DNA from: a virus
Taxonomy: Duplodnaviria > Caudoviricetes
Reading direction: 5' to 3' (one strand)
Virus record (IMG/VR): IMGVR_UViG_3300011226_000001
Location: 1-64,000 of that record
DNA: 64,000 nucleotides
Both the position numbers and the translations under genes were made by a program. The notes beneath the pieces were generated by a model. It worked only from the letters and a program-made list of their open reading frames with translations. It was not told the DNA's origin and made no database searches. Every line of letters starts with the position of its first letter. Position 1 is the first letter of the stretch. This document shows positions 14,171-37,973 of this stretch, in pieces.

Positions 14171-14337
14171 TAGCTATTCTCCCTGACGAAGCGCTGCCAT
14201 TTCATTTCAAAGTGTGTGAGTATCGCAGCACTGACGATGCCAATCTTTTCACACCACTCATAAGTAACGTCCACTGTGGATAACGTATACGCCACCAGAA
14301 TCCATGTAGCGAAGAAGATTATCGGGTAGCGTATCAT
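14170..14337 (-). CDS. small membrane protein (55 aa, not in ORF track)
   Basis: MIRYPIIFFATWILVAYTL...; fills the gap exactly with TAATG coupling. Confidence 0.55.
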   Translation of the reverse strand: MIRYPIIFFATWILVAYTLSTVDVTYEWCEKIGIVSAAILTHFEMKWQRFVRENS

Positions 14338-14338
14338 G

Positions 14339-14902
14339 TTACTTACCAACCATTACCATGAGCTTGCTGCTATCGTCATACAACGAGAACATGTTGTTGC
14401 CTAACAGCTTATCGTCTACGTCAAAGTTTTCATCACAAACGACAGGCACGACATTGCGGCCGACATAATCAACGTCAGAGTCCGCGCCCACCAGCAACGT
14501 TTTACCGACCAGTTCTTCTTTGTCTGTCTCCAGAATCTGACAGGCGACTGCGGTAGGTTGCAGCAGATAGAACATGAAACCAACGTCGGCGTCTTTGAAG
14601 CAGTTGACCAGACGACAATTGGTAATGTTGTGTTTTACTGCGAGCTGGACAATACGCGAGAACACGCTGCCTGTACCTTCAAGCACTTTAGCCTGCTTGC
14701 GGTAGTTGAGCGTAGGCAGAACATCACGATCCTGTTCGTCTTCGAGTAGAATGCGTCCATTGTACTCATAGAACACACGCTGCATGAAGTTGAACAGCTC
14801 TGTAGAGTTTGCGCCACCCAGTTTGATCTTGTACTTAGAACAAACCAACTGGCCATCTTGCACATGCGCAATCATCATAGAACGAACTAAACAGTATGCC
14901 AT
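14339..14902 (-). CDS. hypothetical protein
   Basis: 187 aa ORF. Confidence 0.6.
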   Translation of the reverse strand: MAYCLVRSMMIAHVQDGQLVCSKYKIKLGGANSTELFNFMQRVFYEYNGRILLEDEQDRDVLPTLNYRKQAKVLEGTGSVFSRIVQLAVKHNITNCRLVNCFKDADVGFMFYLLQPTAVACQILETDKEELVGKTLLVGADSDVDYVGRNVVPVVCDENFDVDDKLLGNNMFSLYDDSSKLMVMVGK

Positions 14903-15048
14903 TTTAAATCTCCCGGACTTCCTTGTCCTCTTTGGTCACGGTCGAAATATCGTGAAGTCCTTCAGGAAGAAAAACCACAGACAGAATATCGTGAGAACGA
15001 TTCCAATCACGACACCTATCCCTAAGCCTACGTAGAACATAGACGCCC

Positions 15049-17178
15049 TTATTTAAATATATCGCCTGGCTTTTTCTTTTTCTTCTTCGCGTAAGGCAAA
15101 AGAATATGTTCGATGAAAGCCTTCGATGCTGCGTGTGTCATTGCTGGCACACAGACACGACCAAGACGTTCCCACTGCTCCTCGAACTTACCGACCAGCT
15201 TGTAGTCAGACGGCATCCCAGAAACAACCAGCAGTTCGTCGATGGTCAATTTACGGCGATGACCTTTGTTGTCTTCGATAAACCCAGCAGACGAGAAACG
15301 CGCTGTTTCATACGCGATTGCATCAGACGCTGTAATCGTTGGCATCGGTCCGTTGATAGCAGGCAGATACTTGATCAGGTCTTTCTGCGTCGTCTTGTAT
15401 CGTAAGATGTGAGGCAACGCATCGCCCAGAAAGGCTTGCGTATCGCACGGGATAACATCAGGCACAGCGTCACGCGCATTCTTATAGCCAAGCGCATGTG
15501 CTACGTCTTTACGTACACCCATGAAGATGATACGTTCACGAGACTGAGGCACACCTAACCAACAAGCATTCAGCATCGGCGCTCGGACATAATACCCGAG
15601 TTTGTCGAACGTCTTCATGATCTCAAGGAAGTACCCTTTCGAGATTCCCTTCACAAGACCACTAACGTTCTCCGCCGTGAATACTTTCGGCATCATGCCT
15701 TGCAGCATACGACAATACTGATCGAACAGGTCATCTACCTGCTGATACTTATTGTCGCTGTACTTAACTTCTTTGCCCCAGCCTTCTTCTTTCACGCCAG
15801 CCGTCGAGAAGCCTTTGCAGTTGTGAACCACAGTACCATTAGCAACATACGTTTCATCGGTCTCAACCGAGAAGTTATACACGTCACACGTTGCCTGATA
15901 CGCAAGAGTCTCAACAACCACTGTCCAAAGATGCGGGTCTTCTTTGCTGAACTCGTGGAAGAAGTTGTGCTCTTCCTGCAAGAACAAGTACCCGATGTGC
16001 TCACGCGCACTTTGGCGATCACGCGGAGTTAACGAGCTGCCGAAGTAAACATCGCCCCAAATCAGACCGTCGAACAGTGGTCTGTTGAATGCGCTACAGC
16101 ACAGATAGTTAAGCTCAAGCAGGAAGCGTTTGCTGTTCGAAGCGATAGCGATACCAGTACCCATCGCAGTCACATAGTCCATGCCCGCACAACCGAGAAT
16201 GAATTGCTGTTTCAGCTCGACGCTCATGTGGAACATCATTGCAGGCAGACGTCGGGAGAACGTGTTGTTACCCTGACTGATAAAGCGGCGCAAGAACTGC
16301 ACCAGCTCCGCATCAATAACAGTACGGAACGTTTTGCGTTGCGCTGTTTTCACATCAATGCGATTCAGGCTACTGATTTTAAGCGCGTCAAACGCCTGCT
16401 CAATCATCGCGTTTTCAATGCTACTATGCGACTCAAAGCTAACGACTTCAATGCCACTAACTGTTTCGATTGAACCACGATCGCACCAGTGTCCTACCAT
16501 CCACCAGAACTCAGGAATACACACCCACTGTTGAATCATCTTCGGCAGTTGTGCAATCTGATTGTGATACACATCAGCAGGTAGATCAGGCGTAGTACGC
16601 GGCGTGCCGAGCAAGTCACCTTCTTGCACGTCTTTCGCATCACACCAGAACGGCTCAGAGTAACCACCAGACTCCAGCGGGCGACGAACGAAGAACGGAT
16701 GTTCAGGCGTAGCGTTGTTGCTGCTGATCATCGTTTCGATTTTGTGCATCGTACCGACATACGGTCTGACCATAGTGTCGTATACAGGGTAATACTGCCC
16801 GACACTGGTCATTGCTCTGTCGCCGACGTTCATGTCCGAGATGAACTTCATGCCGTCTGCTGTATGAATGATAGTGTCTTCGGTAAAGCATGGAGGACTA
16901 CCGTCAAGTAAATCAAGTTCGCCTTTATCCAGACCGCAATAGCGTAACAGCTTGCCCGGATCTAAACGGCGAATGTCATGAGGCAGCACTTTCGTTGTCG
17001 GGTGGTTAGCTTCGTATGACTCTCTTGCGGGGTCAACAAACTCGTTACTCAGCAAGATGTTGATACCGGCCATCTTGTGGCCGGTAGAAGAACCACCGCA
17101 ACCTGCGAAGAAACTCATACCACGCCAGGGTTTATCCAGCTTGTTGATTTCCTTCATCGTAGGCGGCTTGATGATCAT
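15049..17178 (-). CDS. C5-cytosine DNA methyltransferase-family enzyme with intein; predicted carboxymethyltransferase
   Basis: Motif I FFAGCGG, motif IV GSPP|C, motif VI ENV, motif VIII QSRER; motif X reads LGRVCVP instead of GNS/AV. Confidence 0.9.
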   Translation of the reverse strand: MIIKPPTMKEINKLDKPWRGMSFFAGCGGSSTGHKMAGINILLSNEFVDPARESYEANHPTTKVLPHDIRRLDPGKLLRYCGLDKGELDLLDGSPPCFTEDTIIHTADGMKFISDMNVGDRAMTSVGQYYPVYDTMVRPYVGTMHKIETMISSNNATPEHPFFVRRPLESGGYSEPFWCDAKDVQEGDLLGTPRTTPDLPADVYHNQIAQLPKMIQQWVCIPEFWWMVGHWCDRGSIETVSGIEVVSFESHSSIENAMIEQAFDALKISSLNRIDVKTAQRKTFRTVIDAELVQFLRRFISQGNNTFSRRLPAMMFHMSVELKQQFILGCAGMDYVTAMGTGIAIASNSKRFLLELNYLCCSAFNRPLFDGLIWGDVYFGSSLTPRDRQSAREHIGYLFLQEEHNFFHEFSKEDPHLWTVVVETLAYQATCDVYNFSVETDETYVANGTVVHNCKGFSTAGVKEEGWGKEVKYSDNKYQQVDDLFDQYCRMLQGMMPKVFTAENVSGLVKGISKGYFLEIMKTFDKLGYYVRAPMLNACWLGVPQSRERIIFMGVRKDVAHALGYKNARDAVPDVIPCDTQAFLGDALPHILRYKTTQKDLIKYLPAINGPMPTITASDAIAYETARFSSAGFIEDNKGHRRKLTIDELLVVSGMPSDYKLVGKFEEQWERLGRVCVPAMTHAASKAFIEHILLPYAKKKKKKPGDIFK
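15820..16890 (-). mobile_element. cis intein (357 aa) with degenerate LAGLIDADG domain, inserted before the catalytic Cys
   Basis: Starts CFTEDT, block B ATPEHPF, ends VYNFSVETDETYVANGTVVHN, +1 Cys; splicing restores SPPCKGFS. Confidence 0.92.
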
Positions 17179-17179
17179 A

Positions 17180-17884
17180 TTATCCCTCGAACTTAAATCC
17201 ACAGCGCGGGCAGGTGCAGTTCAGAGTATCGCCAACATCATCAGCGCTGTACTCATTGAACTTACCGGTACTACCGTTCATCTGGCCGGTAGTCTTGCCA
17301 GCACGTTTGTCGTCTACAACAACAGCCTGACTTTTCAGCTTTTGTTGCAGACCGCGAATCTCTAACGGGTCAAGCCCCAGCAACTGAGGTTTGATTGTAT
17401 TGAGATCGAGTTTTTCCACCAGCTTGGCGAGCTTCTTGTTATCGAACTCACCGCCGTGGGCGTTCGCTGCGATGTTCGCTGCGTACTCTGCTTTCTTATC
17501 GGTCCAGTTCACGATACGCAGAGGAATGCTGATCACTTTATCAGACTTCTTCGGATGCGTTGCGTGGATGTAGCCCAGAGCGATAGTACCGTGCTTATCA
17601 ACGGTCTTCTGGATCTCGATACGAGTCTTCCAACCGTCAATAGATTTCAGACGCTGGTGGCCTGAGATCAACACGCCAGATTTGACGTTGTTATTGAACA
17701 CGATACCAGACAAGTCACCGAAGCTACCCAGAGAGCCTTCGAGCGCTTTCAGGCGACTGTCTGTAATGAAGCGCGGGTTGTATTCAGCGCCTTTCAGTTG
17801 AGCGACTGAGTTGAGTTTCTTGAGATCAAACTTCAACCCGTCTTTCTTTTTTCCGTCCTTTGTTTTGATAGCAGTTTTTGCCAT
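17180..17884 (-). CDS. ParB/Srx-like domain protein with C-terminal Cys motif
   Basis: YNPR, LISGHQRL, CPRCG; such proteins often sit directly upstream of phage DNA-modification methylases. Confidence 0.7.
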   Translation of the reverse strand: MAKTAIKTKDGKKKDGLKFDLKKLNSVAQLKGAEYNPRFITDSRLKALEGSLGSFGDLSGIVFNNNVKSGVLISGHQRLKSIDGWKTRIEIQKTVDKHGTIALGYIHATHPKKSDKVISIPLRIVNWTDKKAEYAANIAANAHGGEFDNKKLAKLVEKLDLNTIKPQLLGLDPLEIRGLQQKLKSQAVVVDDKRAGKTTGQMNGSTGKFNEYSADDVGDTLNCTCPRCGFKFEG

Positions 17885-17927
17885 TATCGTATCTCTTATC
17901 GGTTGCTCTTTCTCTGTCTTTACAGAT

Positions 17928-18263
17928 TCAATAGTAATAGTGTCGGGGAGTCGTCTGCCATTCGATTTGAACTTTACCGAACTGCACAACACGACGGTCC
18001 AGCTTAATTACCATTTTCAGACCTGAGACCGAGCATTTCTTAATGTCGATACCTCCGCCCGAGTCTTTAGCTCGAAACGTAACAGTACCTCTGTCCATCT
18101 CATTCATCTGGGCGACAGTGAACTCGAACGTGCATTCATCGCTGCCGATGTTTACGTCGTTCTCTACCAAGTTCACTGTATTGCCTAAGAAGCCTGTGTG
18201 CGGAACTTTAGGCGCACCCAGATACTGGAAGGGATGAAAGTCTTTCTTCGGATCATATTTCAT
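17928..18263 (-). CDS. hypothetical protein
   Basis: 111 aa ORF with AGGAG RBS. Confidence 0.6.
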   Translation of the reverse strand: MKYDPKKDFHPFQYLGAPKVPHTGFLGNTVNLVENDVNIGSDECTFEFTVAQMNEMDRGTVTFRAKDSGGGIDIKKCSVSGLKMVIKLDRRVVQFGKVQIEWQTTPRHYYY

Positions 18264-18313
18264 GTCAGCTCTCCTGTTAGATAATCAAATTACTGACAGG
18301 AGGCCGACGCCGG

Positions 18314-19204
18314 TCAGATGAAACGAATCAGGTTCAGTGCGTGGTTGTAGCCGATACTGGGGCGAGCAGTACGCGTGAAGTCCAGATACTTCTGCGAGAA
18401 GTGCTGATCGATGTTGACGGTAAGATTTAGGTTAGCACCTTCGTCTTTGAAAGTAACGACAGGCATCTGACCGCGAATGGCGATGTGCATGAACTCTGCA
18501 TCATCTACAGGGCGGTGCATGTAGCCACCGTCGTGCGCAACAAACGTGTACTGATAGTTAGGTGCACCGCGATCAGTACCGAACGTGATGTACGCTGCAA
18601 GCAGATCGTTTTCCGCTGCAAGGCGCATCATGTCTTTGTTGTGCTCAAGCAGCCAATGCTGCACACCCTTTTCAGAGATGTGCGCATCGTGGAAGATAAC
18701 ATCACCTTCAGGGTTGCGGGTAACATTCAGATTGCCGTCCACCATCAGGTAGTGTTTGTACAGCATCCAGATATCGTACTTGTTACCTGTCTTAACCGCT
18801 TTCAGTGTGTCGTGCTTAAACGCGACTTCGAGCGTAGGCATCTTCGCTGTCTGAGCTTTCAACCACTCAACGAACTGATCAAACTCCTGCGTGATGTTCG
18901 GCAGAATCGCTTTCAGCTTGTGCGCATTAAGCAAGACTTCGATTGTCGGTGTGTAGCCATTGAACCAGTCCATGTATTCTTTGGTGAACATCGTACTGGT
19001 CAGATCGACACGCCAATCAGTAGGCTCAGGCAACGATAGGATAGCGTGACCAGTATCAATGTCGTGTGACACATCTACGTTAGTGAAAACACAATCGAAC
19101 AGGTCAATACGTTCGTGCGTACCGTCGGTCAGTTTACCATCGTCCTGCACACGCAGAATACGAAAGGGTGTGCCACCACAAGCAGCATAACCTAATAGCT
19201 TCAT
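18314..19204 (-). CDS. hypothetical protein
   Basis: 296 aa ORF with TAATG coupling. Confidence 0.65.
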   Translation of the reverse strand: MKLLGYAACGGTPFRILRVQDDGKLTDGTHERIDLFDCVFTNVDVSHDIDTGHAILSLPEPTDWRVDLTSTMFTKEYMDWFNGYTPTIEVLLNAHKLKAILPNITQEFDQFVEWLKAQTAKMPTLEVAFKHDTLKAVKTGNKYDIWMLYKHYLMVDGNLNVTRNPEGDVIFHDAHISEKGVQHWLLEHNKDMMRLAAENDLLAAYITFGTDRGAPNYQYTFVAHDGGYMHRPVDDAEFMHIAIRGQMPVVTFKDEGANLNLTVNIDQHFSQKYLDFTRTARPSIGYNHALNLIRFI

Positions 19205-19851
19205 TAGCTTACTCCATTTTCTACGAGGCGACGCAACTCAATCAGTTGCTGTTCCTGCGTCATCTCAGAATCGAGAATAGAACGCAGGGCATTGTGCGGG
19301 ATAGTGCGCTTCTGGCTGAACGGCAGATTCTTGAGGAATCGCATTGCCATTGCACCAGTCTGCACCGCTTCGATCTGCATGTTTTCGATCAGGCGCATGT
19401 CACCGTTTTCTTCAAACGTAGCGCAGTCACGCAGCAGCTCACCAGCTTCTTCAACAACGATAGACGCGGCGTGAATACATTCTTCTGGCCACGTCGGATG
19501 ATCAGTTTCTGCATCGCGCAGTTCGTTCATGATCAGTTGCATCGCAGCTTGCTCGCGGCCGTGCACGGACTTCTGGAACAACGCCATGTTGTTTGCACAA
19601 TGCGACTTCATCATAGACTGATACTCAGAAGCCTCTGACTCACCGCCGATGTGCTGCAACAGGAAGCAGTTGTTAGGCAGATGATAGATGCAACGCGCCT
19701 GCATCGAAAGAATAGGGTCGCTGTCACTGTCTTCTGGGTGAGGCACAACAATGTCCAGAATCTCAACACCGCGACGGGGGATTTGACCTTCGTTCTCGCA
19801 GTAGCCTACATACAAGAACGAAGACACACGTTTGATTAGCTGCATAGTCAT
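19204..19851 (-). CDS. MazG-like NTP pyrophosphohydrolase domain protein
   Basis: IVVEEAGELL...EAVQTGAMAMRF (ExxE...E helix pair); next to thyA. Confidence 0.55.
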   Translation of the reverse strand: MTMQLIKRVSSFLYVGYCENEGQIPRRGVEILDIVVPHPEDSDSDPILSMQARCIYHLPNNCFLLQHIGGESEASEYQSMMKSHCANNMALFQKSVHGREQAAMQLIMNELRDAETDHPTWPEECIHAASIVVEEAGELLRDCATFEENGDMRLIENMQIEAVQTGAMAMRFLKNLPFSQKRTIPHNALRSILDSEMTQEQQLIELRRLVENGVS

Positions 19852-22157
19852 TTGGTTACACGTCCTTTAACCATAGGAGCCGGTGAGTAGTCGAGAAGCT
19901 GGAACCACTCTGCGTTAGCGTTGTCTAACAACTCTTCTGGCGTCAGGCCAAGAATGTCGTCAGTGATTTCGAGCAGCGGGTACTGGATAGGCTGGCCCGT
20001 AGTTTTCATCACTTCGCTCAGTGCTGCCCACTGCTTCTTCTGTTGTTCGAACGCTTCGAAGTGGTGCGTGTACAGATGCGTGTTGGTCGTGTTCAGCGTA
20101 AACGAACCAACGTTCAACCCAGCCCACTTCGCAATCAGTTGGTGCATTGCGCTGTAGCCCATGATGTTGAATGGTCGCCCGAGCAGCACATCGTTTGACT
20201 TGGTGTTCACCGGAGTTCGCTAGACTCAGGCCGTTCTCTCGCTCGGACATAAAGAGAACCGCTGCATATCGCTATGCAGAACAGACTATATCACAGACCC
20301 AATCATTGGGCCTCTCGCCATTTCGGCTCACTGTTTCGTGAGGCAGATTGCTCTGCGCCGCTTGGCCCTACTCTACTCACCTGCGTTTGGTCTTTCCTTT
20401 GACCCGCACGTTTTCGATAGTCGTTGCGCGTTTACGTTCCGGCTGTTTCACTTCTGACAGGTAATAGATATTCGCAAATTTTGGATTACTGCTATGTGCT
20501 CTATAAGAAAGCGTAGGACGCGGTATACCGAGTGCGTCAGACGCGGCAGATAAAGATTCGTACACGGCACCTTCAACGCTGATTGCTTTGACTATGTTTT
20601 CTTTCCATGAGTCATCGCGTGTTGCGTTTGCGAGTTTGATTTTCACAATAGCTTCTGGCGTGTGTGTCTTACCGTGAAACGAGTTCTTTTCTCCAGTGCG
20701 CGTTCTCGCATGTGCGCGTAACTTCTCACGACCTTCTTCGGTCAAACACGTACCTTGATTTGGGTGTGTTCTACCTAGATTGACTTCACGCAAGCGCTCA
20801 CGTACTTCTGGAGTATGTGTTCTGCCGTACATAGGGTTGTTCTTACCGCTAATCTTTTCGACTCGATCAGCGTAACGCTCAGGGTCACTTTGGATTTTCT
20901 TCCACAACTTCTTTGCGCTGATACTCTTGCCTTTGGCCAACTCTTTAGCTCTAGGATGATTAGTCAAGTAGTCACCACCAGACGCATAGTGCTTCATATT
21001 GAGTAGCAAAGGCGAACCCCAGTATTTCTTTATCAGTGCATCTTCTCGCTCACGCGCTTCATCCAGAGTATCAAACTCTTTGGACTCAACAACAAATGCT
21101 TTCCATCCTTTCTTGCTTGCGTTAAACAACTCTTGCAATGGAGTGTTAACGTGTTTATTTGCAAGCAGATTGGTCATATGTGTTTTTTGGCGCTTGTCGA
21201 TTGACGCAGCAGAGCCTATATAAAATTTACCTGTCTTCTTGTGTACCAGTCTATATACGAATGCCATTGTAACGATCCTTTCTTCGGTAGGTCGTTTAAA
21301 ATTAGCATTCTCAGAACGATTTAGCACAGGATTGTCTCAAAGAGATATTCCCTGTTTAGACGAGTTATTCGACCAAGATTACTCTTGGAAGGCGCTTAAT
21401 GTAACGAACGCATGGTCACAACGATATGTAAGGATGCGTCGGACGGTGCCATACCACGCGCTTCCATCTGCGCTGTTTCATACGCAGTAGGCTGAGTTAC
21501 GTTGAACTCAAACTCAGTGTGGCACGGCGGCAGACCCTGCATGTTCTGGTACGCAGGGTTGAACGCCTGAACGCGAATACGACGAGAGCGAGAACGCGCC
21601 ATGACCTGATGCAGTGCGTTAGCGAACTGGTCAATCTGACCTTCAAACAGAATACGTCCGTCAGTCAGTTGCGTTTCGATATACCCGTCTTCGCGCATAC
21701 GCAGGATTTCGTTACGCACACGAATCATCTCAGCAGTAGGCTCAGAGTGCTGAGGTTGCGTGTAGTCGTAGTACGCTTTCAGGTCAGGCCAGCGACGCCA
21801 CATCTCACCGTAGATAGGACCGCATTCGCCTTCTTCGTCTGCCCACTCGTCCCAGATTTTAGACTGGAGTGTGCTGATGTTCGTGTCACCACGCATGAAC
21901 CAGCAGGTTTCATCGACAGCGGCAAACCAGTTTTTACGTGCCGATAGCAGCGCAGGGAAAGCGATCAGAGTGTTAGACAACTGGAAGCCTACACCAATCA
22001 GAGTACGCCACGTATCTTCGGTGCGGCCGGGATCTGATTCGTCAGTACCACACGCCAGAATAGCGTTGCCTAGGTTGATGTACTGTTCGTCTACGCAGTG
22101 CAGAGAGTAAACTTCGTATTGATTTGGATCGCGCAGATCAAGAGGTTGCTTGTTCAT
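19848..22157 (-). CDS. thyA: thymidylate synthase, two exons (22157-21408 joined to 20198-19848; 366 aa)
   Basis: IWDEWAD, GPIYG..WR, LPPCH in exon 1; the splice gives MR|SNDVLLGRPFN; HLY in exon 2. Confidence 0.9.
20199..21407 (-). mobile_element. group I intron (1209 nt)
   Basis: 5' exon ends in U, intron ends in G; P1 GCGU/GCGC, P10 UCGUU/AACGA; P AAACAGGGAA, Q AAUCCUGUGC, R CAACGACUA (20418-26), S GAUAUAGUC (20284-92). Confidence 0.9.
20377..21267 (-). CDS. intron-encoded GIY-YIG homing endonuclease with NUMOD3-type repeats
   Basis: FVYRLVHKKTGKFYIGSA..R...H; NPMYGRTHT and NSFHGKTHT repeats; C-terminal HTH. Confidence 0.9.
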   Translation of the reverse strand: MAFVYRLVHKKTGKFYIGSAASIDKRQKTHMTNLLANKHVNTPLQELFNASKKGWKAFVVESKEFDTLDEAREREDALIKKYWGSPLLLNMKHYASGGDYLTNHPRAKELAKGKSISAKKLWKKIQSDPERYADRVEKISGKNNPMYGRTHTPEVRERLREVNLGRTHPNQGTCLTEEGREKLRAHARTRTGEKNSFHGKTHTPEAIVKIKLANATRDDSWKENIVKAISVEGAVYESLSAASDALGIPRPTLSYRAHSSNPKFANIYYLSEVKQPERKRATTIENVRVKGKTKRR

Positions 22158-33095: not shown

Positions 33096-33965
33096 TTAAG
33101 TCCTCGTTGACCAATCACGCGCAAGATCCATAACACGCTTGCGACCGTTGAAGTTGATCTCAGGATTATCCAGTAAGCGTTCGAAGTACGCAGGTACTCC
33201 AGCTTCTGTTTGATAGCCGCGGTGAGGACGATGCCCTACCACAGCGATGTGATCAGCCCATGCTTCTGTAATTGGCATTTTTTGCTTAGGCTGATTTAGT
33301 TCTTGCCACGAACGACCGATGAAGTAGTCATGGACTTTCTTCAACAGCCACGGGTTAACGTGAGTCAGGCCGAAAGTGTCGCACAGCATTTCGTGTTGCA
33401 GCATACCACTTGGGTTATAGCCGTCGACGCCGAGAGACTTCTTACCGTTCTTGAACCACGGAGCCCAGTATTCTTTGCGATACTCGTCGAACTTTTCGAG
33501 TACGCTATGCGGGCCGCTGATTTTTGCGATGTGGGTGTTACGCGCAAAGCAGAAGTAAGCGTCAGCAACAAGGCCGCTGAGAACGTACTTGTAACCTGCT
33601 TCTTTGATTGCCTTGTAGCAATACACCATAGGGTAAGCACACTCATAGTCACGCTTTTTGATACAGCGATACTTGGCGTGAAGTGTGCGCCAACCCTGAG
33701 CGATAGCAGTGTCAGACGTAGGAACTTTCACAAGCGTGAACTCCCAACCCATCTTCTCTGCGACTTTACGCGCGTGTTTGCTGTCGAAACTTTCGTTGTC
33801 GCCCATCTGGAAAGTAAAGGCATGTACCTTCTTTCCTAAGTCATGGGCAGCGAGCCCGCTAACAAGTCCGTCAAGACCACTGGATAGCAGCACTGCCACC
33901 TTGTCGTCTTTGACTTCTGCTTTAACGTGCTGTTCAAACAGCTTGCGCAAAACGTGTTTAGCCAT
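33096..33965 (-). CDS. asparagine-synthetase-like ATP-dependent amide ligase lacking the glutaminase domain
   Basis: VAVLLSSGLD PP-loop, VLSGLVADAYF, NPWL, QPKQK; only 289 aa. Confidence 0.75.
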   Translation of the reverse strand: MAKHVLRKLFEQHVKAEVKDDKVAVLLSSGLDGLVSGLAAHDLGKKVHAFTFQMGDNESFDSKHARKVAEKMGWEFTLVKVPTSDTAIAQGWRTLHAKYRCIKKRDYECAYPMVYCYKAIKEAGYKYVLSGLVADAYFCFARNTHIAKISGPHSVLEKFDEYRKEYWAPWFKNGKKSLGVDGYNPSGMLQHEMLCDTFGLTHVNPWLLKKVHDYFIGRSWQELNQPKQKMPITEAWADHIAVVGHRPHRGYQTEAGVPAYFERLLDNPEINFNGRKRVMDLARDWSTRT

Positions 33966-34902
33966 GATTACCCAGCCTTAAAATATTCGCAGTTGTTGTT
34001 CCGTGAAGTTCAGCCAGATAGTCTGCGCGAACGTTAGGACCGAGTAGTTCAATCTCAGAGTCAAACGGTAGCTCAGTATCTGACAATACGAAGGCATGGT
34101 TCATGCTGATTGCGTGGTCAACTCCTGTAAGCAACGTGACTTGCGCATGTGGTGCGTCAGGACAATGCACAGGTGTGTTCTTGGCAGACTGATACAGGTT
34201 ATCGTAGTAACCCACATCAATCGAGTACAGGAACTTGTCTGCGCAGTTAGGTACTAATGCACCGTAACCAAATACTTTACCTGCATCCAGCTTATCGCAG
34301 ATACGAGCAAGCACTGTCTTCGCTACACGCAAATTACCGTTCACAGTTTCATCGCTACTATAACCGGTAAGTGCCATGCCAACACGCGGTTTCAACTTCG
34401 GCGCGTACGGATTAAGCACGTTCATGCTTGAGCCAACAGACAGCATAGACAGCGGTACGTTGTAGCGTTGTGCAATCTCGTTAGCATCGTACTCAGACAC
34501 AGGCACACGGTAATCATCCGAGTGAACAAGAATCAATGCTGGTGGGTGCGTTAAACCTTCAGGCTTGACGTTGATACGACGACAACCCCAATCAGCAAAG
34601 ACAGCGTATCGTCCTTCATACTTGCCTACTTGCTTTGCGTTCAGAACAGGCACTGTATTCCACATGCGCCCGTCTACACCACCGAGAATTAACAGCGTGT
34701 GGTCGAGTTCAAGTTCACGCAGCGCGAGCACGTCACGGTCGCTATGAACAGCGAGCACCTCAAACCCTAAAGAGAATGCTTTCACGCAATCTAAACCATG
34801 CCCGTAGAAATTACCTTTCACAACCGGAATCATGGACGGAGCGAGTGATTTTAAATAGGCCGCATTACTCGCTAACGCGGCATTGTCGATTAAGACTTTC
34901 AT
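33958..34902 (-). CDS. alanine-racemase-family PLP enzyme
   Basis: PVVKGNFYGHG (PLP Lys), RVG..L.G, FGYG (second catalytic Tyr), GYYD, ISMN. Confidence 0.8.
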   Translation of the reverse strand: MKVLIDNAALASNAAYLKSLAPSMIPVVKGNFYGHGLDCVKAFSLGFEVLAVHSDRDVLALRELELDHTLLILGGVDGRMWNTVPVLNAKQVGKYEGRYAVFADWGCRRINVKPEGLTHPPALILVHSDDYRVPVSEYDANEIAQRYNVPLSMLSVGSSMNVLNPYAPKLKPRVGMALTGYSSDETVNGNLRVAKTVLARICDKLDAGKVFGYGALVPNCADKFLYSIDVGYYDNLYQSAKNTPVHCPDAPHAQVTLLTGVDHAISMNHAFVLSDTELPFDSEIELLGPNVRADYLAELHGTTTANILRLGNHG

Positions 34903-35933
34903 CAGCGTTTCAGCGTCGTGATGTAGTGAGCAACACGGTCGAACTCTTCACCGCCCGCTTGTGGATCAAACGCTACGTAACCACTGCTCTTAGAAAGATT
35001 ACGCAGATACACTTCACGCTCTTTCCTTGTCATCTTCACTTCGCAGAAGTTGATACTGATACCGACAACTTTCGGGTACCAGTCGTGCATTGCGGCAGCA
35101 GCGAGATTGGCAGAGATCTCGTCAACGATGTTGATCTCGCGCTCGGTGTTCATCATGAAGTTGCGACCGACAGTGTGGCAGACAACGATAGCGTCAGGCT
35201 GAGAGCCAGCAATCAGGCTCATGCTACCGCCGGTGTAAGCTGGATGACGCAGCGCACCCTGACCTTCAATCAGATAGATAGCTTCTTCGTCAGCAGGTGA
35301 CAGCCACTCAGCAGCACCGGCAAGGAAGTCAGCGACCACAGTGTCGTTGTTGATGCCACGACCGCTAATCAGAAAACCAGTTTGACCGGTAGCACAGAAC
35401 ACAGCTTTCTGTTTCAGCTCGGTCAGCTTCTTGGTCAGTGCGAGTGCAGTAAATTTCTTACCGCACGAACAGTCAGTACCAACAGTAAGAACACGAACAC
35501 CGGCACGAGGCAGACCAGTGCCCAGAGGATATTGCTCAGGGTGGTGGCGGAAGTCATACAGCGATACTCCATGCTCACGAGCTAAAGCGAAGTATTTAGG
35601 GTTGTCAGACAGCTTGACATGCAGAGCAGCAGCAACGTTCAGGCCTCGCTTCAATGCTTCGCAGATGGCGCGATCAATGTCTTCGTTAATCTGACCGCCA
35701 AATGGTGCAAACCCGATGACCAGAGTTTCTGCATCGGTCTTATCGAGGTCACGAATTTCAACGTGAGGCATTTCAGGGAACAGGTTGTTAGCATCGTCAA
35801 CTACACAGCAGACTTTCTCTGACGCCCACTCAACCATACCGGCAGTGATCTTCGCCATTGCTTTCGTCGTGGCGTTACCACAGAACATCGCGTACGGTTG
35901 CGGAATATTATAGATATCACCAATCACGCTCAT
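34902..35933 (-). CDS. DUF1611-family (DgcN-like) P-loop protein
   Basis: VGTDCSCGKK, ATGQTG, DFLAGAAE, IEGQG, GSQPD. Confidence 0.85.
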   Translation of the reverse strand: MSVIGDIYNIPQPYAMFCGNATTKAMAKITAGMVEWASEKVCCVVDDANNLFPEMPHVEIRDLDKTDAETLVIGFAPFGGQINEDIDRAICEALKRGLNVAAALHVKLSDNPKYFALAREHGVSLYDFRHHPEQYPLGTGLPRAGVRVLTVGTDCSCGKKFTALALTKKLTELKQKAVFCATGQTGFLISGRGINNDTVVADFLAGAAEWLSPADEEAIYLIEGQGALRHPAYTGGSMSLIAGSQPDAIVVCHTVGRNFMMNTEREINIVDEISANLAAAAMHDWYPKVVGISINFCEVKMTRKEREVYLRNLSKSSGYVAFDPQAGGEEFDRVAHYITTLKR

Positions 35934-37195
35934 TTCTTCTTCCCTTTCGTTTTGATTTTGGTGCCATCGAACGTCAAGCCCATACGAGCATGACACTTGT
36001 GTATAGCTTTTACAGTACGCATTAACGTCTGCGTCTTCGACCAGTCTACTACGCCTTTTTCTTCGAGTTCTTTCGACAGGTCGGTCTTCATAGGCTTGCC
36101 GTCATCAGGCACGACTGCATTCTTCATGAAGTCAGCCCAGCCTTTGTCTACGCTCTTGCACCAGTTTGTCAGCAGCGTAGCGCGTTCAGCTTTCGTCAGG
36201 TACTTCGTGCAAGCCCAGTAAGCAATCTCATTGCCCAGTTCTTCCACCTCTTTCGCAGTCACACGGTCAACAGTGCGAATGTGGATGTGCTTGTTCTCAG
36301 AGCAGAAGCGCGTATAGTCTCGCGCCCAATCGTACTTAGAAGTTTGCACAACGAACGTCGGGCAGTACGGAATAGTCTCACGTACACCGTTAGCGAATGA
36401 CTCTACTTCGGCACATGACAGCGCTACGGTACATTGTCCAATGAACGCCATCTTCTCGTCGCCGGACAGACCGCTAACGACTTGATAATCTTTCACACCT
36501 GCATCAGCAAGCTCTTTCTCCCAGCTTCTGACTTGACGATCAGAGCCGGTCATCACACGAACAGGCAGACCAGATGCAGCAGCAATACGCGCAGCAAACG
36601 CAGGACGCTTAACCTTCTCGTATCGACAGATAATCAGCAGCGAGGGTTTACGTTTCGCAGGAGGATTGTAGTCTGATACACTGAATGCGTTGTACGCAAC
36701 AGCAGCCTCAGTTTTATAAATCTCAGACAGCACACGCGCAGTTGAGTCACAGTTCGCTAAGATACGCAGACCAGTGACAGGCGCTTGCAGCAGCGCACGG
36801 TGCATCTTCTCAGCGCCAAGCCCGTTCAGGTCTTGCGTCAACAGGAAGCTGTTATGTGAACGGTAGTAAACAGGCATAATCTTAGGCAGCCCGAGACCGA
36901 CAGCAGCTTCGACAGCTTCGTAGGTGCTACAAATGATTGCACGGTACGGAGTGCGGTCGAGCGCTTCGAGCAGAGCACTTTGAATGTGACCAACTTTGTA
37001 CCCGTCACTCAGAGTGGTGTCACCGTAGTTAAACCACTGGCTCTTGGTGACAGAGCTGTTTTCACCGTCAGTGATGAAGTCGCAGAAGCCGTACGCTTCG
37101 AGTCCATCAATGTACGCACCTACACCAGACTTGGTTCTGTCCAGAAGAGTCTTGTGAGGCACGATTGCTAAGATACGCCCGTTTACTTTCATCAT
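35930..37195 (-). CDS. GT-B glycosyltransferase (GT4-like)
   Basis: SGVG, RSH, R...KRP, ESFANGVRE (Ex7E motif). Confidence 0.7.
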   Translation of the reverse strand: MMKVNGRILAIVPHKTLLDRTKSGVGAYIDGLEAYGFCDFITDGENSSVTKSQWFNYGDTTLSDGYKVGHIQSALLEALDRTPYRAIICSTYEAVEAAVGLGLPKIMPVYYRSHNSFLLTQDLNGLGAEKMHRALLQAPVTGLRILANCDSTARVLSEIYKTEAAVAYNAFSVSDYNPPAKRKPSLLIICRYEKVKRPAFAARIAAASGLPVRVMTGSDRQVRSWEKELADAGVKDYQVVSGLSGDEKMAFIGQCTVALSCAEVESFANGVRETIPYCPTFVVQTSKYDWARDYTRFCSENKHIHIRTVDRVTAKEVEELGNEIAYWACTKYLTKAERATLLTNWCKSVDKGWADFMKNAVVPDDGKPMKTDLSKELEEKGVVDWSKTQTLMRTVKAIHKCHARMGLTFDGTKIKTKGKKK

Positions 37196-37202
37196 ACTTC
37201 CC

Positions 37203-37973
37203 TTACTTAATTGCGATCCATCCAGCGAAGTTAAGATCGCGGTAGAAACATTCAACGCGGTCGAAGCCTGCTTTGCGCAGCAGTTCTTCGTTCCACGCGG
37301 CTTTGACAGGTACGAGTACGCCTTCAAGAGCTTTGCGTTTCGTCGCAATGCTCTCTTGCGAATAACCGTTGTCGCCCTTCATGCCGTAGTAAGTATCCAC
37401 CAGCAGACGGTCGAGGAAGTTGTCGTCACCCAACACTTTCTCAACGAGAATGAACGCACCGCCTTTCTGCAACGAGTCGTACACTTTCTCCAGAATGTGC
37501 TGACGATGTTCTATCGGCGTAAACTGGAGAGTAAGTACCGATAGAATAAGCGAACACTCTACCTGCTCGTCGAAGCGGAACGTGTCTACTTCAACCAGCG
37601 ACTCGCTACTGATTTTCGCTTTAGCCGTTTTCAGCACAGGGTTTTCACGCAGACGCTCAAGCATTGCAGGCGCGACTTCGTAGCAGCAATACATGTTGCC
37701 GACTTCACGATCAGGCTCAGGACGATCAGCAGCGTGGAGATACATGTACTCGCCGAACTCAGCACAGAACGGTTCGATAGCACGTCCAAGTGAAGCACCC
37801 AGATCAACGATAGCTGAACCCGGAGTCACGAACTGGCGACCAAGACGATAGGTCAGATCGCGCATACGATCATAGGAAGGAATTGAGTTTTGCAGCATGT
37901 TATCGAACACAGCAGCAACTGGCTCATTGAACTCCCAGCGACCGACAGGCATTGTTTTATCAACGTTGCTCAT
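37203..37973 (-). CDS. cmoA: carboxy-S-adenosyl-L-methionine synthase (CmoA-like)
   Basis: WEFNEPVAAVFDNMLQNSIPSY, DLGASLG, TLQF, LVEKV, KRKALEGV (CmoA signature Arg), NFAGWIAIK. Confidence 0.85.
   Translation of the reverse strand: MSNVDKTMPVGRWEFNEPVAAVFDNMLQNSIPSYDRMRDLTYRLGRQFVTPGSAIVDLGASLGRAIEPFCAEFGEYMYLHAADRPEPDREVGNMYCCYEVAPAMLERLRENPVLKTAKAKISSESLVEVDTFRFDEQVECSLILSVLTLQFTPIEHRQHILEKVYDSLQKGGAFILVEKVLGDDNFLDRLLVDTYYGMKGDNGYSQESIATKRKALEGVLVPVKAAWNEELLRKAGFDRVECFYRDLNFAGWIAIK

Follow-up and report, generated by a model that had tools for sequence, protein, structure and literature searches.

The gene at positions 15049..17178 (minus strand) of virus record IMGVR_UViG_3300011226_000001 is very probably a member of the CmoX family, that is, a DNA cytosine-C5 carboxymethyltransferase that would use carboxy-S-adenosylmethionine (Cx-SAM) and not S-adenosylmethionine (SAM). 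The window, by which we mean the whole stretch of 64,000 nucleotides (64 kb) that was analysed, is the first quarter of this complete 268,224-bp record with terminal repeats. Its DNA is 90-93% identical to that of the Erwinia phages pEa_SNUABM_17 and pEa_SNUABM_1 and about 85% identical to that of the Dickeya phage vB_DsoM_AD1 (AD1; genus Alexandravirus), and the phage is a jumbo phage of the Erwinia type. A natural DNA carboxymethyltransferase had been proposed in the initial annotation, which was made from the sequence alone. This proposal is supported by the correspondence between Arg682 of the encoded protein and R350 of SpCmoX, by the position of SpCmoX as the closest solved relative, and by the presence of both a CmoA and a CmoY-type ligase in the genome.

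According to Yang et al. (Nat Commun, 7 Dec 2025; PMC12783734), SpCmoX of Synechococcus phage S-B43 produces 5-carboxymethylcytosine (5cxmC) with Cx-SAM made by the phage CmoA. In the 1.9 Å structure of SpCmoX (8YF3), R350 contacts the carboxymethyl group of Cx-SAM; the wild-type enzyme works with Cx-SAM and not with SAM, and R350N has no activity with either cofactor. An asparagine-synthetase-like ligase, CmoY, then adds glycine to the 5cxmC product. The same study counted 5,615 database proteins that combine SPPC with the Arg, and these co-occur with CmoA (4,257), ligases (2,251) and ParBc (1,660). Because the class, the Arg-for-Asn logic, the parallel to M.MpeI and the associations with CmoA and ParBc have already been published, the novelty of a natural carboxymethyltransferase is reduced; the window enzyme is a further member of the class, and the core claim is no longer a discovery. 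Particular to the window locus are a conserved intein with degenerate LAGLIDADG motifs and an expanded accessory operon, and the supplementary text of PMC12783734 contains no mention of Erwinia, Dickeya, Alexandravirus or inteins.

The transferase gene and its conserved motifs

The open reading frame (ORF) at 15049-17202 (minus strand) is free of internal stops and encodes 717 residues from a GTG at 17202. Its likely start is the ATG at 17178, which yields a precursor of 709 residues, the length of the annotated orthologues, and its stop codon lies at 15049-15051. No other gene of the 268-kb genome matches PF00145, and the match here (2e-36) falls in two pieces with HINT and intein matches between them. 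The N-extein (16891..17178, minus strand), which aligns to SpCmoX residues 22-99, contains motifs I-III and the GSPP of motif IV, and the C-extein (15052..15819, minus strand) contains, by alignment, Cys462, which is both the catalytic residue and the +1 residue of the intein, as well as motifs VI, VIII, IX, and X and the target-recognition region. A scan of positions 14300-18400 for promoters and terminators returned none above shuffled expectation.

The motifs of C5 methyltransferases, which the initial annotation had described as intact, are all present in the ORF: FFAGCGG (motif I), NEF with E54, GSPP/C (motif IV, with the slash at the intein junction), ENV (E511-V513), QSRER (VIII), RKLTIDEL...PSDY (IX), and ERLGRVCVP (X). 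The alignment columns of C462, E511-V513, R555, R557, and G681 are invariant, and these include the cytosine-binding residues E511 of ENV and R555/R557 of QSRER. In the precursor, the cysteine of the SPPC signature of Yang et al. is Cys1 of the intein, which Cys462 would replace on splicing. The best solved relative of the protein is 8YF3 (E 3.4e-52), followed by M.HaeIII (1.4e-14; HMMER). Furthermore, an AlphaFold2 model of the precursor, built from a 33-sequence alignment and with a mean pLDDT of 82, has 8YF3 as its top Foldseek match (TM score 0.75 on target), and the VMA and PI-SceI inteins and then M.HhaI come next in rank. The named Cx-SAM contacts of SpCmoX, F25, E47, F48, and D69, correspond to F32, E54, F55, and D76 of the window enzyme, and C98 is also conserved.

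The ORF is uninterrupted by stops in more than 40 phage genomes, at identities down to 57%, and the exteins have a dN/dS of 0.02-0.12 between the window and its orthologues (six phages of four genera). The C-terminus carries a Lys-rich tail (15052-15090, minus strand; KKKKKKPGDIFK) that reads QPGEIFR in the Yoloswag enzyme; the tail is kept in the Erwinia and Dickeya phage enzymes, and Pseudomonas phage PaBG and SpCmoX lack it.

The motif X arginine

Read directly, the codon at 15157..15159 (minus strand) is CGT and encodes Arg682 of ERLGRVCVP, so that motif X has Gly-Arg in place of the canonical Gly-Asn of M.HhaI-type enzymes. Arg682 is the predicted carboxylate-binding residue. In the HMMER alignment, ERLGRVCVP of the window lies on ERVGRMVPP of 8YF3 with R682 in the column of R350, and the SpCmoX numbering is consistent because C98 of SPPC falls at its expected number in the same alignment. 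A MAFFT alignment with the S-B43 gene (GenBank MN018232) places R682 in the R350 column again, and a second one with E. coli Dcm and the phage A4 methyltransferase brings their Gly-Asn into the columns of G681 and R682, where the Gly does not vary. In the published superposition, R350 of SpCmoX corresponds to N304 of M.HhaI (PMC12783734). Both the arginine codon and its position opposite the motif X Asn, as given in the initial annotation, are thus borne out, the latter by four routes. The engineered Asn-to-Lys enzyme to which the annotation had pointed is M.MpeI N374K, for which the use of Cx-SAM is stated in PMC12783734, and the parallel was drawn there for SpCmoX itself. By analogy with SpCmoX R350N, an R-to-N mutant of the window enzyme may be inactive rather than make 5-methylcytosine (5mC).

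The Arg also follows the distribution of CmoA. In a control of 12 phage enzymes that includes the window enzyme, Arg occupies the column in all five enzymes from CmoA-encoding genomes (the window, S-B43, PaBG, S-CRM01, and TurkishDelight, all ERxGR), as against one of the seven from genomes without CmoA (Mcat8); the other six have Met, Leu, or Asn. This control is small, and not every lineage in it is independent of the others. When the C-extein was used as the query of an exhaustive HMMER search, 4,884 homologues were recovered; of the best 150 (cluster representatives), 89 have Arg at the column, 47 have Asn, and 9 have Asp, and each of the 13 closest has Arg. On a FastTree phylogeny, the residue state is clustered (11 changes vs 42 in shuffles), and the window enzyme lies in a starred five-member clade in which every member has Arg.

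Several homologues with other residues or contexts deserve mention on their own account. Many C5-methyltransferase homologues from phages that lack CmoA (FpV9, phi18:3, LoVEphage, BMBtp14, and Melnitz-2) have Gly-Met or Gly-Leu in motif X, and textbook alignments therefore overstate how invariant the motif X Asn is among phage enzymes. The nine Asp-type clusters read QWERLGD, and the tree, which includes eight of them, joins these eight in a single group; a negative charge at the position that meets the cofactor group might indicate another cofactor or an inactive enzyme. Moraxella phage Mcat8 (40 kb; from Moraxella catarrhalis) encodes at 898-1968 a CmoX-like enzyme with ERMGR and has no phage CmoA. 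This enzyme would therefore need host Cx-SAM, as SpCmoX did in E. coli.

The CmoA operon and the ParB-like partner

The initial annotation had pointed to a phage-encoded CmoA about 20 kb away, and such a gene is found at 37203..37973 (minus strand). The predicted cofactor supplier, a homologue of the Cx-SAM synthase, it matches TIGR00740 (1e-42) and PHROG 4752 (2e-80), its best match in the Protein Data Bank (PDB) is E. coli CmoA (4GEK, 2e-30), and it is 30% identical to the CmoA region of S-B43. The genome contains a single copy, and no other cofactor-making enzyme was found there.

On the same strand, 33096..33965 encodes a CmoY homologue, an asparagine-synthetase-like adenosine monophosphate (AMP)-forming ligase of 289 residues without a glutaminase domain (PF00733, 1.9e-15), which along its whole length shares 34% identity with SpCmoY of S-B43 (E 7e-54). 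Between the CmoY-like gene and CmoA lie an alanine-racemase-like gene (33958-34902), a DUF1611/DgcN-like gene (34902-35996), and a 420-residue GT4-like candidate (35930-37192), all on the minus strand; the last is a lead from a language-model look-alike search alone (score 0.98). The racemase-like gene and the 420-residue candidate are also present in pEa_SNUABM_17 and are absent from AD1, where the operon consists of CmoA, DUF1611, and the ligase only. Moreover, the ligase of some sister Erwinia phages is only about 25% identical to that of the window, and CmoX in sister phages is at least 85% identical. Because the accessory genes and the ligase differ between sister phages in this way, the decoration step seems variable while CmoX stays constant.

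The annotation had also placed a ParB-like gene directly upstream of the transferase gene in a coupled arrangement. The coupling stands: the stop codon of a 234-residue ORF (17180..17884, minus strand), TAA at 17180-17182, ends 1 nt before the CmoX ATG at 17178, with a GAGG just upstream. The ParB-like assignment is supported by PHROG 620 ('ParB-like partition protein', 1.7e-31) and not by Pfam ParBc. The protein also matches PHROG 498, which holds fusions of ParB and methyltransferase (1.9e-18), and a PDB sequence search with it gave no match. Its counterpart directly upstream of the PaBG CmoX is 43% identical (8e-51), and PaBG is one of the other phages in which the ParB-like/CmoX pairing is conserved.

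Among the competing explanations, the one that survives best, with a small probability in our view, is that of an ordinary SAM-dependent 5mC methyltransferase in which the Arg is tolerated and the role of the phage CmoA is to modify tRNA or to deplete SAM. Every catalytic motif of a C5 methyltransferase is indeed intact, the Met and Leu residues at the column in genomes without CmoA indicate that Asn is not strictly required for the fold, and the phage CmoA scores below its curated cut-off. However, SpCmoX, which has the same Arg, took Cx-SAM only (PMC12783734), and the Arg tracks CmoA-encoding genomes without exception in the control. In addition, the number of phage records found by tblastn is the same for CmoX, CmoA, and the ligase as queries (46 from Erwinia and 2 from Dickeya phages in each case), a result that concerns the equality of counts only, and the only known substrate of CmoY, of which the genome encodes a homologue, is 5cxmC in DNA. 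No CmoB-type tRNA partner was found among the ORFs scanned near both loci; no genome-wide search for one was made.

An intein on the catalytic cysteine

The two exteins are separated by an intein of 357 residues (C105...HN461; 15820..16890, minus strand) with a HINT domain and a degenerate LAGLIDADG-type domain. It stands directly before the catalytic Cys of motif IV (GSPP/C-KGFSTAG), which is the +1 residue, Cys462. The alignment with the intein-free PaBG enzyme has a single clean gap over residues 105-461, and the gap against SpCmoX is likewise clean. Because the PaBG gap covers exactly C105-N461, the spliced product would have 352 residues, the length given in the initial annotation for the intein-free enzyme. 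The Pfam matches to Intein_splicing, Hint_2, and PT-HINT are all below curated cut-offs, and the intein call therefore rests on the fold match, the clean gap, and the conserved junctions. The fold matches TliVMA, PhoVMA, and PI-SceI (Foldseek, TM scores of 0.5-0.68 on target). The residues required for splicing, Cys1 (CFTEDT), the block B His (EHPFF), the terminal His-Asn (VVHN), and the +1 Cys, are invariant in six phages from four genera, as are the junctions SPP/CF and VHN/C and the block B sequence EHPF. The intein is kept in every Erwinia and Dickeya phage orthologue, down to 57% identity, and its dN/dS relative to the window is 0.08-0.14, which indicates purifying selection. The invariant junctions and the low dN/dS in both exteins and intein argue that the transferase gene is functional and that the intein is maintained.

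Among the 150 closest homologue clusters, 18 have an intein at the same site; these inteins are 171-391 residues long and are carried by both Arg-type and Asn-type enzymes, including that of E. coli phage A4. The two LAGLIDADG sites of the window intein read GHWCDRGS and GCAGMDYV, as against G(R)FLGDGW and GYxxADGH in same-site inteins; they thus lack the pair of motifs in which a catalytic Asp precedes the final Gly, and Pfam LAGLIDADG has no match to the window intein. Both Asp residues are lost in the Yoloswag intein. Canonical motifs are retained in the same-site inteins of phage A4 and of metagenomic homologues, in contrast to the degenerate motifs of the Erwinia-phage lineage, and this difference suggests that the window intein is fixed and vertically inherited and that its endonuclease is inactive.

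A second alternative, which we consider very unlikely, is that the gene is a non-functional relic whose intein splices poorly or not at all, so that no active transferase is made. The LAGLIDADG motifs lack the canonical Asp-Gly residues, and the catalytic Cys is unavailable before splicing, as a relic would allow. However, degenerate endonucleases are common in fixed inteins and do not impair splicing, and a relic is difficult to reconcile with an ORF that is intact in more than 40 genomes, with purifying selection on exteins and intein alike, and with the invariance of Cys1, the block B His, the terminal His-Asn, and the +1 Cys. The last alternative, that of a different group taken from another SAM-derived cofactor or of a substrate other than the phage double-stranded DNA (host DNA only, or RNA), is equally improbable: a target-recognition region unlike that of SpCmoX and an Asp-bearing sister clade, which hints that the column tunes cofactor choice in several ways, speak for it, but the Arg and all of the named Cx-SAM contacts match SpCmoX, CmoA is the only cofactor-making enzyme found in the genome, and DNA is the substrate that one would expect from the ParB-like partner and the Dcm-type fold.

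Points that weigh against a carboxymethyltransferase

The following points count against the assignment to the CmoX family. The CmoA score for TIGR00740 is 146 bits, below the curated NCBIfam cut-off of 193 bits, and Pfam ParBc (PF02195) does not match the ParB-like protein even at E 10. The target-recognition region is not alignable with that of SpCmoX. The backbone of the tree is poorly resolved, and a single origin of the Arg type is therefore not established; a departure from Asn alone is not diagnostic either, because Met, Leu, and Asp also occur at the column in phage enzymes. Splicing of the precursor is something that we infer. Finally, a literature search on DNA modification in Alexandravirus, AD1, and Y3 returned nothing relevant, and no biochemical or DNA-composition data on this phage or on any Alexandravirus were found in the literature searched.

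A putative route to modified cytosine

In the mechanism that we propose for a CmoX-type enzyme at this locus, the precursor would be inactive because the 357-residue intein separates the GSPP of motif IV from the catalytic Cys, and protein splicing would join GSPP to Cys462 to give the mature enzyme. The phage CmoA would convert SAM and prephenate to Cx-SAM, to which the host CmoA could also contribute. The spliced enzyme would flip out the target cytosine, Cys462 would attack C6, and the carboxymethyl group would be transferred to C5 while Arg682 holds its carboxylate, with 5cxmC as the predicted product. The CmoY-like ligase would then probably amidate the carboxylate, further changes to the product may be made by the accessory genes of the operon, and the coupled ParB-like protein probably helps the enzyme to engage DNA.

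Because the +1 nucleophile of the intein is the catalytic Cys itself, the enzyme cannot work before splicing, and the locus offers a natural case in which the two roles fall on one residue of the host enzyme. Use of the intein for regulation of the transferase is speculation. A literature search on inteins in cytosine methyltransferases returned nothing relevant. We put forward only tentatively, as the less probable outcome, that CmoX of this lineage is the entry to an undescribed cytosine hypermodification unlike the glycine amide of S-B43, with the intein as a switch that acts after translation and sets the time or the conditions of genome modification. Candidate end products are an amide of 5cxmC with a D-amino acid, a glycosylated derivative, or both, through the racemase-like, DUF1611, GT4-like, and diverged CmoY genes, and through the variable accessory genes, amide or glycosyl derivatives of 5cxmC that are new could come to light.

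The locus extends the 5cxmC pathway from a marine cyanophage to jumbo phages of Alexandravirus, Sasquatchvirus, Yoloswagvirus, and Baikalvirus, several of which are in use or have been proposed for the biocontrol of fire blight. Since the pathway extends to these phages, a bulky cytosine, charged or amidated, is predicted in their DNA and would affect restriction and CRISPR sensitivity, sequencing, and cloning.

The split thyA locus

Elsewhere in the window, the thymidylate synthase gene (19848-22157, minus strand) is split into an N-part (21396-22157; Pfam positions 1-168) and a C-part (19848-20210; positions 166-264). Between the two parts, an ORF at 20377-21327 encodes a GIY-YIG/NUMOD3/I-TevI-like homing endonuclease, and thyA of AD1 is uninterrupted (1107 nt). 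The split looks like a td-type group I intron, judging from this arrangement. An Rfam scan of the whole window returned nothing at gathering score and hence lends no support to the putative thyA intron.

Comparison with known systems

Among characterised enzymes, SpCmoX is the closest counterpart. The window enzyme shares with it the C5-methyltransferase fold, the SPPC motif, the ERxGR motif X, the Cx-SAM contacts, and co-encoded CmoA and CmoY-type ligase genes; the two are 39% identical over the exteins, and SpCmoX has no intein. The three genes are adjacent in S-B43, whereas in the window 20 kb separate CmoX, with its ParB-like neighbour, from CmoA and CmoY, and the CmoA operon of the window also contains DUF1611, racemase-like, and GT4-like genes. 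Because the target-recognition regions do not align, the GC specificity of SpCmoX is not transferable to the window enzyme. Derivation of a target motif from this region was rejected, the region being without an alignable characterised relative.

The 'DNA cytosine methylase' gp309 of the Pseudomonas jumbo phage PaBG is 48% identical to the window enzyme, has the ERLGR motif in common with it, and likewise follows a ParB-like gene in a genome that encodes CmoA and an asparagine synthase. However, gp309 is intein-free (335 residues), and the PaBG genes are contiguous in the order ParB-like gene, CmoX, CmoA, one hypothetical gene, and asparagine synthase, without DUF1611, racemase-like, or GT4-like genes. 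Another order is seen in Streptomyces phage TurkishDelight, in which two ParB-like nuclease-domain genes are followed by a CmoX-type methyltransferase and a glutamine-amidotransferase-domain protein, with CmoA nearby; the amidotransferase-domain protein looks like a ligase of the glutaminase-containing kind to which Yang et al. refer. Around the closest metagenomic homologue without an intein lie thyA, dCMP deaminase, and Dam-type genes, and there is no CmoA within 15 kb.

M.MpeI N374K resembles the window enzyme in that a basic residue takes the place of the motif X Asn and permits the use of Cx-SAM (PMC12783734), but it is engineered, has Lys and not Arg, is CpG-specific, and is a distant relative (4DKJ, E 2e-4). 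M.HhaI, M.HaeIII, and E. coli Dcm have the same fold, catalytic Cys mechanism, and motifs I-IX as the window enzyme, whereas their motif X has GN in place of GR, and they use SAM and make 5mC. The PI-SceI/VMA inteins share with the window intein the HINT and LAGLIDADG-type architecture by fold, Cys1, the terminal His-Asn, and the +1 Cys; the window intein differs from them in that its host protein modifies DNA and supplies its own catalytic Cys as the +1 nucleophile.

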